From: Octopus sinensis
Lineage: Eukaryota
Direction of reading: 5' to 3'
Assembly (NCBI RefSeq): GCF_006345805.1
Contig: NC_042999.1
Coordinates: 4,402,001 to 4,466,000, forward strand
DNA: 64,000 bases
Positions 5,389-63,280 of this stretch are shown here, piece by piece. Each line of letters opens with the position of its first letter. The stretch's first letter is position 1. Position numbers and translations under genes: made by a program. The notes under the pieces were generated by a model, which saw only the letters and a list, made by a program, of their open reading frames with translations, was not told the DNA's origin and searched no databases.

Positions 5389-5924
5389 TTAAACAAAAGG
5401 AAACTTATAAGATTGAAACCTCACTTGTGAAAAGTGGATTTTTTGGAAAAAAATTCCGTTATCTACATGAATATCTTAACAATTCAGTTGGTTCCTGATA
5501 TCCAGTCGTTAAATGAGAGATAAAGTTATTTAGAAATAATTTTATGAAAGGCAGTTATGTTTGCAACTACTGTAATGGCTATTCCAGTATTGCCAAATTG
5601 GTTAGTTTTTAATTTTGCCAGTTATTTTACTAAGTGGTGTGATTATGTCCTGTAATTAAACTGACAGAACTAGACAATAAAAACTAGACAGAATGCACTG
5701 CATTATTTTTAAATTGAGCTAGATTTATAGTTAGCCACTTGGTAATTGCTTTCGGGAGTAATGTTGTGTTAAAATATGTGTGATCTAGTTAGAAATTATC
5801 TAAATTAATAACACCAATCAGAAAGTTTTCAGATGAAAGAGTACTGGAGAGTATGTAAATAAAGTATTCACACACGACCTCATAATGCAAACTGAGTGAT
5901 TGAAAAAATAACCAAATGCTCATA

Positions 5925-6331
5925 GGCGCAGGAGTGGCTGTGTGGTAGGTAGCTTGTTTACCAACCACTTGGTTCCGGGTTCAGTCCCACTGCGTGGCAC
6001 CTTGGGCAAGTGTCTTCTACTATAGCCTCAGGCCGACCAAAGCCTTGTGAGTGGATTTGGTAGACGGAAACTGAAAAGAAGCCTGTCGTATATATGTATA
6101 TATATGTGTATGTGTGTGTATATGTTTGTCTGTGTTTATCCTTCTAGCATTGCTTGACAACCGATGCTGGTGTGTTTATGTGCCCGTTACTTAGTGGTTC
6201 GGCAAAAGAGACCGATAGAATAAGTACTGGGCTTACAAAAAGAATAATTCCCGGGGTCGAGTTGCTCGATTAAAGGCGGTACTCCAGCATGGCCACAGTC
6301 AAATGACTGAAACAAGTAAAAGAGTAAAGAG
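5925..6331 (+). mobile_element. tRNA-derived SINE family 1, full length
   Basis: A box TGGCTGTGTGG, B box GGTTCAGTCCC, CCTTGGGCAAGT core, internal (TA/TG)n, AAAAGAGT tail; many copies in the window. Confidence 0.9.
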
Positions 6332-13119: not shown

Positions 13120-13980
13120 CAATTCTCTGTCATCTCCTTCATCAGATACAACATCTTAAGATCGTTTTTCACCACATCATCTCAAGTTTTTTTCAGTCGT
13201 CCTCTTCCCCAAATACCATTCACTTTGAGTACTTGGTACTTGCTTATGTAGATTATCATCATCATCATCATCATTTAGCGTCCGCTTTCCATGCTAGCAT
13301 GGGTTGGACGGTTCAACTGGGGTCTGGGAAGCCAGAAGGCTGCACCAGGCCCAGTCTGATCTGGCAGTGTTTCTACGGCTGGAAGCCCTTCCTAACGCCA
13401 ACCACTCCGTGAGTGTAGTGGGTGCTTTTTACGTGCCACCCACACAGGTGCCAGACGGGGCTGGCAAACGGCCATGGATGGATGGTGCTTTTTATGTGCC
13501 ACCGGCACGGGGGCCAGGCAAGGCTGGCAATGGCCACGATCGGATGGTGCTTTTTACGTGCCACCGGCACGGAGGCCAGTCAGGGCGGCGCTGGCAACGG
13601 ACACGGTCGGGTGGTGCTTTTTACGTGCCACCGGCACGGGGACCAGGTGAGGCTGGCAATGGCCACGATTGGATGGTGCTTTTTAGATGCCATCATTTAT
13701 TCATATCATGTGCTCATACCAACACATATTCCTCTCTTGCATGCTATGTCTGATTCTTCTTATACCCAGTGAGTCTCTCAGTTCATTTATACTGTCTTTC
13801 ATATATCTACCGAAGCATGTTCACCTTATTTCTTTCTAGCCTTTGCATGTCTCCTACACTGAACATCCACATCTTGCACTGTGCAGCAATGCACTTCGTA
13901 CATAAGCATCATATAATCTGTCCTTGATCTTGTAGGATAAGCTGTTTCATGCCAGCAGAGATAATAGCTTCCTGAACTTA
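13120..13980 (-). mobile_element. Decayed RTE-clade LINE fragment, interrupted by a SINE at 13255-13685
   Basis: Minus-strand KFRKLLSLL...YDAYVRSALLHS...DMQRLERNKVNML, and a GRGRxxKTW-like 3' segment. Confidence 0.65.
13255..13685 (-). mobile_element. Repeat family 3 ((GAT)n-tailed retroposon with internal ~62-bp tandem units)
   Basis: GGTTGGCGTTAGGAAGGG..TCCAGCCGTAGAAAC body and (GAT)n tail; 4+ tandem units at 13421-13685. Confidence 0.85.
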
Positions 13981-32441: not shown

Positions 32442-32546
32442 CATAAGTGCATGTGTATGGTTGTGTGTGTATGTGTGTATATATATGTATATTGTAATTA
32501 TTATCATTATCATTGCTATCATTCATTATTTTAAAATATTTTTCAG

Positions 32547-32611
32547 CTTGGCTCTAGTATTCCCTGAAAAATATGGAAATCTTCAGTTAAAAACTAATTT
32601 TGATATAGGAA
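32547..32611 (+). CDS. CACNA2D: alpha2-delta exon C (S-LALVFPEKYGNLQLKTNFDIG), phase 2-1
   Basis: Acceptor atttttcAG, donor GTAAGT. Completes the PFSLALVFP..YG motif typical of alpha2-delta; phases match both neighbours. Confidence 0.9.
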
Positions 32612-33711
32612 GTAAGTTTGACTTTCTTATATTTCTTACTACATTACACGAATATAAAAAAAAGTATTATATCTATCACTAAACAAGTGTTTATTGTAGG
32701 CCCTTAGATACAATTATCCAAGCATTATTATTATTATTATGAGTTTCTTGTCTTCTTTCAATTTTGTTTCCATTTCTTGTCGAGTGTCTTCACAATTATT
32801 ATTATTATTGTTATTGTCAAAGAGCAGCACACACTATCAAACTGACACTGTGATGCAAATATACAAAACCCCAATATACCTATCATGACTACCCATTTAA
32901 TATGCTTACACCAGGCATATGCATCACAACCATATGTGCATGACATGGTAATTTCATATTAAGATAAACAGTGTAAGACCTTGCAGGTAGGCCCAGTTAG
33001 AATTTTCTTTAAGTCAAGTAGCCAATCCTGCTCAAAAGGTCCCTGAATAAGGGTTGTTTAAGGATGATGAATGAAGCACCCATGTTTCCAGAGGTGAATT
33101 ATTCAAACCCCCAAAGAATTCCTCTCCACAAATGGCTATGATGCTTCCCCACCACTTCTGCTCGTGATCAGAGTTACACATATCGTCAGCCACTAAGGGA
33201 CATGCTGAAATGGTTATGGTCAAGCAACTGACAAACAAATCTGTGGTATTGAGCAGAATATTTGCTGTAGCCCATCTTTTACATCAAGATAAAACATGTA
33301 CATGATAACACTTCCAATCAGTGTTTTTTTTTTTTTTAATTTATAGATCATTTGGTTATTGAAAGTATTCTGTATAGTATTTGGACCATCCCCAGCTATA
33401 CTATTTTCTATTTTGATAAACGGTAAATTCTGGGGCTTTGGTTATGTATTTCTCTGCATTTTTTTCATTATTCATTCCTAAAGCACCTTTATTATAGGGA
33501 TTGTTTCTGTTTGAAGTCACCATTTTCTTTTGTTTTGATTATCTCTATTTCTAGATCATTATATTTAGATAATTTCCTTCTTTCTAATAGAAATACTTTA
33601 ATATTTTCTGTTTTTGGGGAGGGAATTTGCTGAATCATTTGAATATCAGAGTATCACACATATGTTCCAGACTTTTCTCTCACTTCTCTCAACCAATTCT
33701 TTCTTTTCTTC

Positions 33712-33916
33712 TTTCTTTTACTTGTTTCAGTCATTTGACTGCGGCCATGCTCGAGCACCGCCTTTAGTCGAGCAACTCGACCCCGGGACTTATTCTTTTT
33801 GTAAGCCCAGTACTTATTCTATCGGTCTCTTTTTGCCGAACCGCTAAGTGACGGGGACGTAAACACACCAGCATCGGTTGTCAAGCAATGCTAGGGGAAC
33901 AAACACAGACACACAA

Positions 33917-33978
<62 letters not shown>

Positions 33979-34138
33979 CATATATACGACAGGCTTCTTT
34001 CAGTTTCCGTCTACCAAATCCACTCACAAGGCATTGGTCGGCCCGAGGCTATAGCAGAAGACACTTGCCCAAGATGCCACGCAGTGGGACTGAACCCGGA
34101 ACCATGTGGTTGGTTAGCAAGCTACTTACCACACAGCC
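33712..34138 (-). mobile_element. SINE family 1
   Basis: Reverse complement of the 5925-6331 type sequence. Confidence 0.9.
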
Positions 34139-35325
34139 CTTATCTTCAGTTGGTTTTGCTTCAAACTCTTCTATCATATGGTGTAGCAAAATCATATTGT
34201 ACCATATGGTAGATGATGTTGTAATATCTGTAATCCTCCTTTCGCTTTGTTTTCTATCACAATCTTGTCTCTGTGACTCATTACATGATCAGTTTGCACA
34301 GAAAAATCTTATTAAATCTTACAATAATCACTTTAGTTCACACCTTCTGGATGTTGGTAGTGGTAGTGGTTGTGGTGATGGTGGTGGTAGTGGTGGCTTA
34401 TTTTTTTCTAGTTTGGACCCAAAGTTCCTGATAATCACCTAATCTACCTATCTATCTATCTATCTTTCATTCTATCTATCTATCTATCTATCTATATCAT
34501 CTTGTTATATTTAGACACTCAATTACTGAGAGTTTTACCTAGTTTGTCACATGTCAGACATTTATCTTGCTGACATCTGTCAACTTCTATTTTAAAGACA
34601 TTTGTTCTAATTGCTTCTTCTTGTAAAGCCATTGTAAGGCTTTCTGTTTCCCCTATTTATGTTGCCATCTTTCAATTAAGTTCATTATAATCTTCACTAA
34701 CACATTGTTATATTCTTTCTGTCACAAGCTGCCCATACAATACATTTTCTTTCCAGATCTCCATTCTCCACTTCTGCCTTTTTATCCATCTTTTGTTTGT
34801 AATCTATTTCTGCTTCTATGTATTCACCATTAAGCTCAATGGTTGCACATGTAAGCTTCTTTTCACTTTTCCTAATATCTTCTTAGTCCCATTATCAAAG
34901 ACATTCTGTAGCTGTTACATTGAGCACCTCCCAACTCCTCTCTTTTCTTGGTACATTCAGCCAAACTAACGTGTGTTGCAAACTAGTTTCTTATGCCCCC
35001 ATCTATCTGTTTTTATTTTGATGTGTTTTATATCAAAGATCTGTAACCAATCATGTCACTGGGTTATAGGTTTCCAATGGACCAATCGCTGATTCACTAC
35101 ATTTCCAATGGCAAGAATTACAAAAGAATGTTTATGCAACTTGAACAAAACAAATACCACAATGTTTTTTTTTCTTCATGTGTCAATTTATTGGCAATTC
35201 TTACTGATATGCAAATGTTTTGTCAATACACACACACACATTATGTGTGTGTGTGTGTGTGTGGTGTGTGTGTGTGTATCAAAGTGAAAGTTTATATGAT
35301 GTAAATGATCTAATTTTTCAAAAAT

Positions 35326-35627
35326 AAAGCACCATCCGTTCGTGTCCGTTGCCAGCCTCGCCTGGCCCCCGTGCCGGTGGCACGTAAAAGCACCATCCGT
35401 TCATGGCCGTTTGCCAGCTCCATCTGGTTCCTGTGCGGGTGGCACGTGAAAAGCACCCACTACACTCGCGGAGTGGTTGGCGTTAGGAAGGGCATCCAGC
35501 CGTAGAAACACTGCCAGATCAGACTGGGCCTGATGCAGCCTTCTGGCTTCACAGACCCCAGTTGAACCGTCCAACCCATGCTAGCATGGAAAACGGACGC
35601 TAAATGATGATGATGATGATGATGATG
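35326..35627 (+). mobile_element. Repeat family 3
   Basis: Two tandem units + body + (GAT)n. Other copies at about 198-560, 18940-19128, 22225-22460, 29921-30090, 37567-37715, 41505-41801, 41880-42230, 50940-51190 and 54190-54335. Confidence 0.85.
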
Positions 35628-36099
35628 AAAGCTGGATCACTTTTTTACATATTGCTGCAAAAAATACTTTGAAGAACTGACGGGGTCAGAACAAGTAAAA
35701 TGAGTTTGACTGAGTACATGGCCAAAATGGTTTGCTACAGTCTCTGCGCATGGTGGTCTGGTGATCTTATTATCTCTACAATACAGCTGTCTACACAAGA
35801 AATATAATTCTTCACCATCATATTCATTTCTGCCATCAAAGTCAACTTTGGCCAATAAGCGAATGAAAATAGTTGGTTATTCCTTGATTATTAAAAACTA
35901 TCCCTATCTCTCTAGCTTTCTTTCTTTCTCTATCTCTCTCATCATTCACACACATGTTTAGGTAGCAGTGATAGGGTTTCTAGATATTCCCCATCTTCTT
36001 CTCTTCTCTCACTTGCCTTAGTAAAGGTGATACATGTGTGTGTGTTAATTTATAATCTTCTACTTAAGCTCTGGCAGCCATGCCACTTATTCTATTCAA

Positions 36100-37091: not shown

Positions 37092-37259
37092 TATATATAT
37101 ATCCAAATTTACAGGGAAAAAAAATCAGATTTAGGATTAAATCCAATTTTATAGTAAAATATTATAAAATATTATTAGAGACAAAACCACTATTTTGCAA
37201 AACAAACAAGGAAAGACTTAATCAATACATAAAATTTTAATAAATAGTCAAAAAAACCG

Positions 37260-37302
37260 CCACTACAATCGTTTCTTGTCTTGATCGACAATCTTCAGGT
37301 GG
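37260..37302 (-). ncRNA. Minimal type I hammerhead ribozyme motif (left arm of palindrome, mirror copy)
   Basis: Exact reverse complement of 37350-37392. Confidence 0.75.
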
Positions 37303-37349
37303 ACTTCCAATAAGTCAGTTTCAAATTATGAAACTGACTTATTGGAAGT

Positions 37350-37392
37350 CCACCTGAAGATTGTCGATCAAGACAAGAAACGATTGTAGTGG
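37350..37392 (+). ncRNA. Minimal type I hammerhead ribozyme motif (right arm of palindrome)
   Basis: Stem I CCAC/GTGG; core CTGAAGA (37354-60); stem II TTGTC-gatcaa-GACAA; GAAA; short stem III AC-gatt-GT; predicted cleavage GUA^ after 37388. Confidence 0.75.
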
Positions 37393-37534
37393 CGGTTTTT
37401 TTGACTATTTATTAAAATTTTATGTATTGATTAAGTCTTTCCTTGTTTGTTTTGCAAAATAGTGGTTTTGTCTCTAATAATATTTTATATATATATATAT
37501 ATATATATCAATTCGTGTGTTCCTTTCAACCTTC

Positions 37535-41024: not shown

Positions 41025-41067
41025 AGAAGGATGTTCTTCGGAATAAATCATTTCGCTTATCAAGATG
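41025..41067 (+). CDS. CACNA2D: alpha2-delta exon D (K-KDVLRNKSFRLSR-W), phase 1-2
   Basis: Long polypyrimidine tract + cAG, donor ATG|GTAAGC, 43 nt. Supplies the TG of the conserved W(K)YC motif completed by exon E. Confidence 0.8.
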
Positions 41068-46096: not shown

Positions 46097-46491
46097 CAGG
46101 AGTGGCTTTGTGGTAAGTAGCTTGCTAACCAACCACAGGGTTCCGGGTTCAGTCCCACTGCGTGGCATCTTGGGCAAGTGTTTTCTGCTATAGCTCCGGG
46201 CCGACCAATGCCTTGTGAGTGGATTTGGTAGACGGAAACTGAAAGAAGCCTGTCGTATATATGTATATATATATATGTGTGTTTGTGTGTCTGTGTTTGT
46301 CCCCCTAGCATTGCTTGACAACCAATGCTGGTGTGTTTACGTCCCCGTCACTTAGCGGTTTGGCAAAAGAGACCGATAGAATAAGCACTGGGCTTACAAA
46401 GAATAAGTCCCGGGGTCGATTTGCTCGACTAAAGGCGGTGCTCCAGCATGGCCACAGTCAAAATGACTGAAACAAGTAAAAGAGTAAAAGA
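46097..46491 (+). mobile_element. SINE family 1
   Basis: Same family sequence. Confidence 0.9.
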
Positions 46492-53378: not shown

Positions 53379-54165
53379 ATCTTCTGTTGCCAAGGGAGAT
53401 AAAAGCTCTCTGAATTTTCTCCATTCTATTCTTACTCTAAAAACTGCACTTCCAGAACATACTCCTCCACAACTAATTTACTCTTTACTCTCTCTTTTAC
53501 TCTTTTACTTGTTTCAGTCATTTGACTGCGGCCATGCTGGAGCACCGCCTTTAGTCGAGCAAATCGACCCTGGGACTTATTCTTTGTAAGCCCAGTACTT
53601 ATTCTATCGGTCTCTTTTGCCGAACCTCTAAGTGACGGGAACGTAAACACACCAGCATCGGTTGTCAAGCAATGCTAGGGGGACAAACACAGACACACAA
53701 ACATACACACAAATACATATATATATACATATATACGACAGGCTTCTTTCAGTTTCCGTCTACCAAATCCACTCACAAGGCATTGGTCGGCCCGAGGCTA
53801 TAGCAGAAGACACTTGCCCAAGATGCCACGCAGTGAGACTGAACCCGGAACTATGTGGTTGGTAAGCAAGCTACTTACCACACAGCCACTCCTGCGCCTA
53901 ATTAGTTCACCTGGGTTAACAAAAATTATCTATTACCTCCAGAATATTTGAGAAAATCAATTTCCAATGTATCTATAATCTTTATGGCTCCTGTGCATCT
54001 TCCACACATGGATAGTACTTTCTCCATTAACCTTCTTGTGATTCCACTGCACCTCTTACATGTCCATAGTTTGCACTGGGTGCACCACACGGGGTCCCTG
54101 CCTATAACTTTCCTATACACTTACCAAGGCCATTTATCTTGTCTATTTTCTTGTTTACTAGAACA
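52880..54165 (-). mobile_element. Decayed RTE-clade LINE fragment, interrupted by a SINE at 53480-53898
   Basis: ORF 53926-54120 (CTQCKLWTCKRCSGITRRL...CGRCTGAI), followed by KFREL...RLYDA.V.TAMLHG...LERNEAS and RLCWFGHV...GKGK.RKT motifs. Confidence 0.75.
53480..53898 (-). mobile_element. SINE family 1, inserted in an RTE fragment
   Basis: Full length, head GGCGCAGGAGTGGCTG on the minus strand. Confidence 0.9.
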
Positions 54166-61931: not shown

Positions 61932-62352
61932 GTCAGTACTAATAAATTTTTACTTTGTTACTCAAATCAATTTATTATTATAGAATATCATGAGGATATA
62001 TAACAATGTGTATACAGTGATGTGAATATACTACTCACCATTGCTTTTTGCCTTCAGAGAACAACTTCTCACATCAAACATTGTGTTTTGAAACACCAAG
62101 GAAGTGATTTGACTGAAGAGACATAATGAGGTTGGAACAGCACAATGTCTCAAAGTCACTTAACATCAATGAATTGAGTGTGTTGTCAGCACACATTGCT
62201 TGAAGGATGTTGCTCTCTGAATGTGAAATACAAAAATGATTAGTCATATTTGCACTCAAATCTACTGAAACATGTTATGAATGGATATACTTATTATTGA
62301 CTTTTTGTTAATTGATCCAGCAGTTATTATTCTTCATATTTAGATCACATAT

Positions 62353-62922
<570 letters not shown>

Positions 62923-63280
62923 TATCAGTACATGCTTTCGATAATGTTGTCATTAAAGATATTGGTAGCTCTAATAATGAGATCTTTTGGATAAATCTTA
63001 TGTCTTCTTATATTGCATTATCTTCCGCATGAAAAACGACAGCTTCCTGCCAGTTTGGGTGTGAGGCATTATTATTGTGCAATGGATCTAAGTACCACCA
63101 CAAGATCAATCCTTGCTGTGGTGTGGTGGTTTATGTGTCACAATGGCAATGAGAGCTGTACTACCAGGATGCAAGCTTCTAGTAAGGCTTTCCATTCTGG
63201 ACAGGTCAAAGGATTGAGACCAATATGAACCACCTCTTGATGGAGATAAAAATAGGTTTGCATAGCAAAAAATAAGTTAA

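Follow-up and report, generated by a model that had tools for sequence, protein, structure and literature searches.

A perfect 161-bp palindrome in Octopus sinensis as a probable product of a spliced Penelope-like element mRNA

Penelope-like elements (PLEs) of the Hydra clade, which belong to the C-terminal EN+ group, are described as carrying a single ORF with a reverse transcriptase (RT) plus a GIY-YIG endonuclease (EN) at the C-terminus, marked by DKT, a CxCX5C linker, CxxC and CxH, CCHH being absent; they have a pseudo-LTR hammerhead, (TA)n targets, an inverted 5'-truncated copy at the 5' end and a one-sided tail (Craig et al. 2021, PMC8557442). The octopus family treated here resembles them in each of these respects. 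However, the Hydra-clade unit is under 3 kb and its tail 30-40 nt, whereas the octopus unit measures about 5.7 kb and its tail about 82 nt; KWK stands in place of RWK, an Asn-rich stretch lies between RT and EN, and the hammerhead arms are mostly intron-less, while the same work describes PLEs as intron-retaining. Penelope of Drosophila virilis, like the octopus family, has its start and a 5'-UTR intron in the pseudo-LTR, the intron ending just ahead of the hammerhead, and spliced as well as unspliced RNAs (PMC2377424, PMC4209133). Its intron is 75 bp long, against 1.3-1.8 kb in octopus, and the available text of these two papers discusses intron retention in genomic copies and reports no spliced ones. 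Schistosoma PLEs contain pairs of minimal hammerheads on opposite strands, 100-700 bp apart (PMC4209133). In Adineta vaga, the pLTRs of PLEs form head-to-head palindromes, one arm of which may bear a tail (PMC3846280); a palindrome with two hammerheads is a known kind of object. For A. vaga, self-priming on an antisense template was proposed, whereas the octopus arms are spliced and end at the start site. The origin of head-to-head PLE palindromes and the reason for intron keeping are left open in the available text of PMC8557442 and PMC3846280. Poseidon PAc of Anolis, a PLE of a different clade, initiates reverse transcription internally in vitro at two sites that bound the tail, nicks both strands of AT-rich DNA and inserts independently of hammerhead cleavage, uncut RNA being usable as template (PMC11167929); the octopus element would be similar in these points, and the available text of that study leaves inverted products and splicing unaddressed. 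Animal non-LTR retrozymes are likewise short, non-coding and of PLE pseudo-LTR origin, with a type I hammerhead, but they form tandem head-to-tail arrays, whereas the octopus object is a single inverted pair (10.64898/2026.07.22.740005).

The window analysed here is a 64-kb stretch of Octopus sinensis DNA (contig NC_042999.1, positions 4,402,001 to 4,466,000). Its sole perfect non-microsatellite palindrome of at least 20 bp with a loop under 30 nt consists of two 161-bp arms (37163-37323 and 37329-37489) around a 5-nt loop, and recomputation bore out the 100% complementarity claimed in the first-pass annotation. The whole insertion, 37101-37489, sits in a (TA)n run. Only the right arm borders (TA)n directly, as had been stated for both; the left arm is first prolonged by a 62-nt 'tail' (37101-37162) that belongs to the element. 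The features are as follows.

32542..32616, plus strand: upstream host exon, aa 481-505 of the alpha-2/delta-3-like protein P0001
37049..37100, no strand: target site on the left side, a (TA)n/(CA)n microsatellite, from the sequence
37101..37162, minus strand: long-arm PLE 'tail', 62 nt out of about 82, the distal ~20 nt absent
37163..37311, minus strand: long arm, exon 2 of the PLE mRNA, 98% to exon 2 of L205/L094
37260..37302, minus strand: minimal type I hammerhead of the long arm by motif, predicted cut 37263/37264
37312..37332, minus strand: PLE exon 1 of the long arm, 21 nt, which precedes the GTAAGT donor in long copies
37329..37340, plus strand: PLE exon 1 of the short arm, 12 nt, splice junction 37340/37341
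37341..37489, plus strand: exon 2 of the short arm, which stops at the tail-less end point of other copies
37350..37392, plus strand: minimal type I hammerhead of the short arm by motif, predicted cut 37388/37389
37490..37508, no strand: right (TA)n target site
41027..41067, plus strand: downstream host exon, starting at aa 505, with an approximate end

The tail was assigned by its match to the tail of the natural long copies L097 and L094. The splice junction of the long arm lies at 37311/37312, with 37311 on the acceptor side and the acceptor context seen in long copies; exon 1 of this arm takes in the 5-nt 'loop' as well as 4 nt of microhomology (37329-37332) common to the short arm, reach and overlap being computed. 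Read in this way, the palindrome consists of two back-to-back fragments from the 5' end of a young octopus PLE from which the element's intron has been precisely removed, and its likely source is spliced, capped element mRNA.

An assembly fold-back would account for perfectly identical arms. However, the arms are asymmetric, with a tail on one only, their flanks are unrelated, host exons run in order across both sides, and 52 comparable places in the genome (see below) obey one biological rule with varied junctions; the chance of such an artefact is next to negligible. A search with the arm produced 645 candidates, and scoring of 40 of them gave a list of 65 matches, among which 47 are identical over all 161 nt, the window's own two included (45 elsewhere). 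Identity of 100% over 161 nt at no fewer than 45 other places agrees with the recent insertion proposed earlier; the ongoing gene conversion offered beside it is not required, since a young, many-copied repeat explains the arm identity. The exact 45-nt hammerhead core occurs 1,593 times genome-wide (control 0). The loci covering the first 100 core matches on C1, 71 in number, hold 105 arms, of which 49 are spliced, 42 unspliced and 14 other. As to inverted versus tandem copies, a count that the annotation had envisaged genome-wide, these 71 loci contain 23 close head-to-head pairs, and same-strand pairs closer than 250 nt are absent from them. Sister-family hammerheads (L175-L204), which have a fully palindromic GAUC loop and a longer stem II, give 668 exact matches, and several of these copies are also short head-to-head pairs.

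The pseudo-LTR origin that had been suggested for the arms was upheld when the parent element was located. Its layout is start, exon 1, intron, exon 2 with the hammerhead, tail, and an ORF with RT and GIY-YIG; the complete order is present at locus L205/L094, with an initiator-like start, an exon 1 of about 23 nt and a second pseudo-LTR 5.7 kb further on. The pseudo-LTR is arranged as a partial tandem at L094/L205 and as an inverted 5' copy at L091-L093. In long copies it holds a GT-AG 5'-UTR intron that the window arms do not have. The ORF, taken from a 598-codon open frame in L097 and, for the N-terminal part, from L096/L094 (the fetched copies have frameshifts), contains an RT with YRDD and DKT, the CxCX5C linker and, at the C-terminus, a GIY-YIG domain. 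Pfam gave no RT or GIY-YIG match on this ORF; its atlas neighbours include families with RVT_1/GIY-YIG in 17-45% of members. DKT, the CxCX5C linker, CxxC and CxH without CCHH were recognised in the translations against section 11 of PMC8557442, the RWK position reads RIKWKA, i.e. KWK, and (TA)n targeting and the hammerhead are present as for the Hydra clade. By motifs and layout, the parent is a Hydra-type EN+ PLE.

Several other arrangements were seen among the fetched loci. A 781-aa GIY-YIG family picked up through Pfam was rejected as the parent, its 3' ends lacking the window arm; this second young PLE family (L046-L059) has numerous near-identical copies, an upstream 479-aa frame and 3'-end tandem repeats, and a pattern search found no canonical hammerhead in it. 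Long copies also occur as inverted repeats of 5.5 kb (L096+L097, C1:73545600-73559400) and 2.4 kb (L091), with unspliced pseudo-LTRs at both ends. The Asn-rich stretch between RT and endonuclease lies at L097:1280-1620; N-rich inserts are described for rotifer PLEs (PMC3846280). At L024/L060, a spliced arm adjoins a decayed Hydra-like RT that belongs to a different family and lies on the opposite strand, and at L001:1200-1500 one arm is without the hammerhead core, deleted between both stem I strands via a GT microhomology.

The removal of the intron can be followed in the genomic copies themselves. In long copies a T-rich AG acceptor lies right before hammerhead exon 2, and the 12-21 nt of exon 1 found in the window arms sit 1,284-1,832 nt upstream, followed by GTAAGT, which gives an element intron of 1,284-1,832 nt; this exon 1/exon 2 junction is present in exact form in both window arms. 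Genome-wide, 1,106 exact spliced arms stand against 709 unspliced ones, and reversed-pattern controls gave 0. Three exon-1 variants exist, each in long and in spliced copies, so that splicing must have occurred repeatedly. A linked exon-2 marker matches the exon-1 variant in 107 of 119 spliced arms, the linkage being that of most long copies (L075 and L100 deviate among them). A sister family uses the same donor and acceptor, with long copies at L188/L189 and spliced ones at L184/L192/L196. Because splicing needs a sense transcript, the spliced copies derive from sense RNA. Searches of main texts in the open literature gave no description of genomic spliced PLE copies, and within that scope precisely spliced, start-bounded twin copies appear to be new as genomic evidence on PLE template polarity.

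Rarer isoforms extend this picture. Alternative splice forms are present on both arms at L115 (acceptor) and L120 (donor). At L099, two host exons that lie 69 kb apart in the genome, each with a GT donor at its source locus, are spliced to element exon 2 on both arms; judged by these joints, L099 is a retrocopy, made by a PLE, of an mRNA that joined host and element sequence. The palindromic insertion spans L099:600-2800 (C1:96557600-96559800), the host exons stem from C1:88522507-88522711 and 88591997-88592109, and a further 1.2 kb surrounding the first host exon at the source locus are also included. A search of the 120 kb that follow the L099 host exon on its downstream side gave no trapping element acceptor. 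Four runs guessed to be RNA yielded contigs over exon 2 and the tail with patchy ORF cover, whose loose ends run into (TA)n and which contain no splice joint; showing neither start, strand nor level, they were left out as evidence. One contig of depth 3 from an RNA-guessed run, at L205:3328-3555, differs by A>G at 16 positions when read antisense to the ORF, which may reflect hyper-editing.

The 5' ends of the spliced arms carry further information on the template. These arms terminate at, or just inside, the initiator-like ACTTC motif. In 217 of them that extend as far as the motif, the base ahead of it is A, C or G, the search pattern excluding T. Among the first 100 listed, scored by eye, the base before the motif is G in 66, genomic C in 20 and A in 14. 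In LINE-1, a G added without template is accepted as the mark left by copying of the cap (PMC4859970). The partner arm does not account for the extra G at L148, L171 and L173; however, 28 of 31 G rows, which include repeats of the same place, are also readable as partner-arm microhomology. The extra G is likely a copied cap, with start and cap alike read from DNA junctions only. About 20% of full-length spliced arms extend upstream of the putative start (L152-L155, L157, L165); the C cases run through it in this way, so that read-through RNA would also have been spliced and copied. RNA cut by the hammerhead was considered as the main template and rejected, as no strong pile-up occurs at the cut site: 26 of 2,095 arms start within about 2 nt of it (27 rows were flagged and one was removed since the hammerhead still lay upstream), a tally made without a matched neighbouring-position control, so that a small excess is possible. 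With so low a number, the main template is something other than cut RNA, in agreement with the anole PLE assay (PMC11167929).

The way in which two arms come together was approached through 52 distinct places with close pairs, partly chosen for full 5' ends (L004 was dropped as a repeat of L003). [quoted passage not shown] In 26 of them the tail arm extends further 5', in 15 the short arm does, and in 11 both reach equally far (p=0.12); the centres have 19 different lengths, with no unpaired base in 7 pairs, one in 6 and two in 16. Within a pair the arms agree closely. The exon-1 variant is the same on both in 42/42 pairs, substitutions common to both arms number 31, against 6.1 by permutation (maximum 15), private ones occur on both arms in 5 cases, and 32 substitutions are confined to one arm. 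This agreement points to one RNA or one source locus per event.

We hold with reasonable confidence that such pairs are two cDNAs made on spliced, capped sense mRNA from two nicks, their ends being joined by microhomology. The GIY-YIG domain would nick both strands of (TA)n, and the two nicks would prime two cDNAs on the spliced, capped sense mRNA, with RT starting internally at both tail ends, as the anole PLE does in vitro. Extension over about 170-250 nt would reach the cap, often copying it as an extra base, and the two cDNA 3' ends would then anneal through 0-6 nt of microhomology, occasionally after short snap-back synthesis (L174, L005, L013). Having no ORF, intron or upstream promoter region, the insertion is likely a dead end.

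Alternatively, a single cDNA on the spliced sense template could start at the tail, reach the cap and fold back, the endonuclease trimming the product at the tail-less point. This fits the arm-arm agreement equally well, rare isoforms included (the L115 acceptor, the L120 donor and the L099 host chimera), as well as the commonest junction, in which the full 5' end is more often kept by the tail arm, the brief snap-back insertions at L002, L005, L013 and L174, and the window's own junction, where the tail arm reaches further. However, a copy of the tail strand cannot extend beyond its template, as the tail-less arm would have done in 15 of the 52 pairs, and the annealing of two ends explains the loop-less junctions at the self-complementary AATT (L101, L114, L119), or blunt at the start base (L085), more readily than a hairpin does. 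Two cDNAs are therefore favoured; folding back is unlikely as the general route and may survive as a part-explanation.

A different possibility is that a palindromic, non-autonomous family arose once from a spliced copy and has since amplified as a unit, in the manner of a MITE or retrozyme. High copy number, near identity and the prevalence of one junction type are what such a family would show, and the antisense self-priming that PMC3846280 proposes for head-to-head PLE palindromes is possibly its route. The junctions, with their 19 centre lengths in 52 places, are nonetheless diverse; separate splicing events are seen in each of three subfamilies, and likewise in the alternative splice forms, in the host-exon chimera and in the sister family, and close tandem arrays, typical of retrozymes, are lacking in the 71 loci. 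An antisense template of the kind put forward in PMC3846280 would moreover keep introns and hence cannot be the source of these spliced pairs. The data already strain the idea of a single palindromic founder, and we rate it as very unlikely.

To a broader proposal we give slightly better than even chances: PLEs may massively copy spliced, capped sense mRNA, with internal starts at the first tail leading to short dead-end twin palindromes, and only copies begun at the downstream tail of longer unspliced RNA would keep the intron and remain active. Were this true, neither 'intron retention' nor head-to-head palindromes would need an antisense template, and the same route would retropose spliced host exons trapped on the element's acceptor. 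The octopus family offers over a thousand natural reaction products that bear on template polarity, the two priming sites and the joining step, a record that can be read from splice junctions, 5' ends and tail asymmetry and checked in the existing in vitro PLE assay. It also presents a PLE that has retroposed spliced host exons, and a family that seeds the genome with perfect dsRNA hairpins.

The hammerheads themselves can be described with some precision. At 37350-37392 on the plus strand, the type I motif comprises a 4-bp stem I, CUGAAGA, a 5-bp stem II, GAAA, a 2-bp stem III with a GAUU loop, and GUA, and the predicted cut falls at 37388/37389; the mirror motif on the minus strand is predicted to be cut at 37263/37264. 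The core CUGANGA/GAAA/NUH with stems I-III is present in the window arms, and the pattern of one complete minimal hammerhead per arm and strand, noted in the first-pass annotation, is confirmed. The search with covariance models proposed there returned no hammerhead family among 34 Rfam matches at E<=5; the matches were generic hairpins of miRNA type, all below their own thresholds. The call thus depends on the pattern, on the stem II kept in sister families and on the PLE context. Stem covariation, proposed as a further check, could be followed for stem II, which folds in 14 of 16 sister-family variants differing in sequence and length, whereas the core and stems I/III were preset by the search pattern and are no test of conservation. 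Conservation of stem II in the sisters indicates a constraint in the element lineage, not at the window site.

In the palindrome, the ribozyme is predicted to be a passenger locked in the hairpin. The folding energy of the 410-nt region is -272 kcal/mol, and to impose the hammerhead fold on it would take +80 kcal/mol, in keeping with the earlier claim that read-through of either strand would lock the ribozyme in dsRNA. Since the antisense arm comes first in host pre-mRNA, the prediction is that the ribozyme never adopts its fold there. A monomer folds weakly (-5.4 kcal/mol), and the loop could pair in a tandem dimer (-5.8); the neighbouring copy here is antisense, so that the second sense ribozyme required by dimeric minimal hammerheads (PMC4209133) would be lacking. 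Minimal PLE hammerheads are described as inactive monomers and weak dimers (PMC4209133), and in one case activity needed the protein (PMC11167929).

These properties bear on the host gene. A window exon is 100% identical to P0001 (68-aa query exon), annotated as an alpha-2/delta-3-like Ca-channel subunit of Octopus sinensis, and alpha2/delta-3-like exons lie in order on either side, which corroborates the placement in a Ca-channel subunit intron; the flanking exons, on the plus strand, are 3.5-4.5 kb away. Pfam did not recognise the single host exons, and a genome search with the VGCC_alpha2 profile matched paralogues elsewhere and not the window locus. The first-pass annotation had seen a self-silencing ribozyme cassette, a Dicer substrate and a conditional pre-mRNA cleavage site, that is, a selected regulatory device of the channel gene. 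The intron is transcribed and the orientation of the arms would yield a 161-bp duplex. However, the form recurs at many unrelated sites, which speaks against a purposeful cassette; the arm is identical to 45 other copies, leaving neither time for nor sign of locus-specific selection; the ribozyme fold would cost +80 kcal/mol and has no sense dimer partner; and the nearest exons are kilobases off. A conditional cut in the channel pre-mRNA is not borne out either, given the weak monomer and the antisense partner, and is made unlikely by the hairpin-locked fold together with monomers that are inactive and dimers that are weak or protein-dependent. A selected cassette is accordingly extremely unlikely, and so is any host function unlikely; the insertion is most likely neutral for the Ca-channel gene.

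Coleoids show extensive A-to-I editing. In host pre-mRNA the hairpin would be passive dsRNA, possibly edited, and its A-to-I editing is plausible by analogy. Elsewhere in the window, dispersed, presumably SINE-like repeats of 150-450 bp (5900-6250, 13250-13490, 33830-34140, 35390-35630, 46100-46460, 53490-53900 and 62340-62950) occur in both orientations and form many long-range inverted pairs in the same pre-mRNA.
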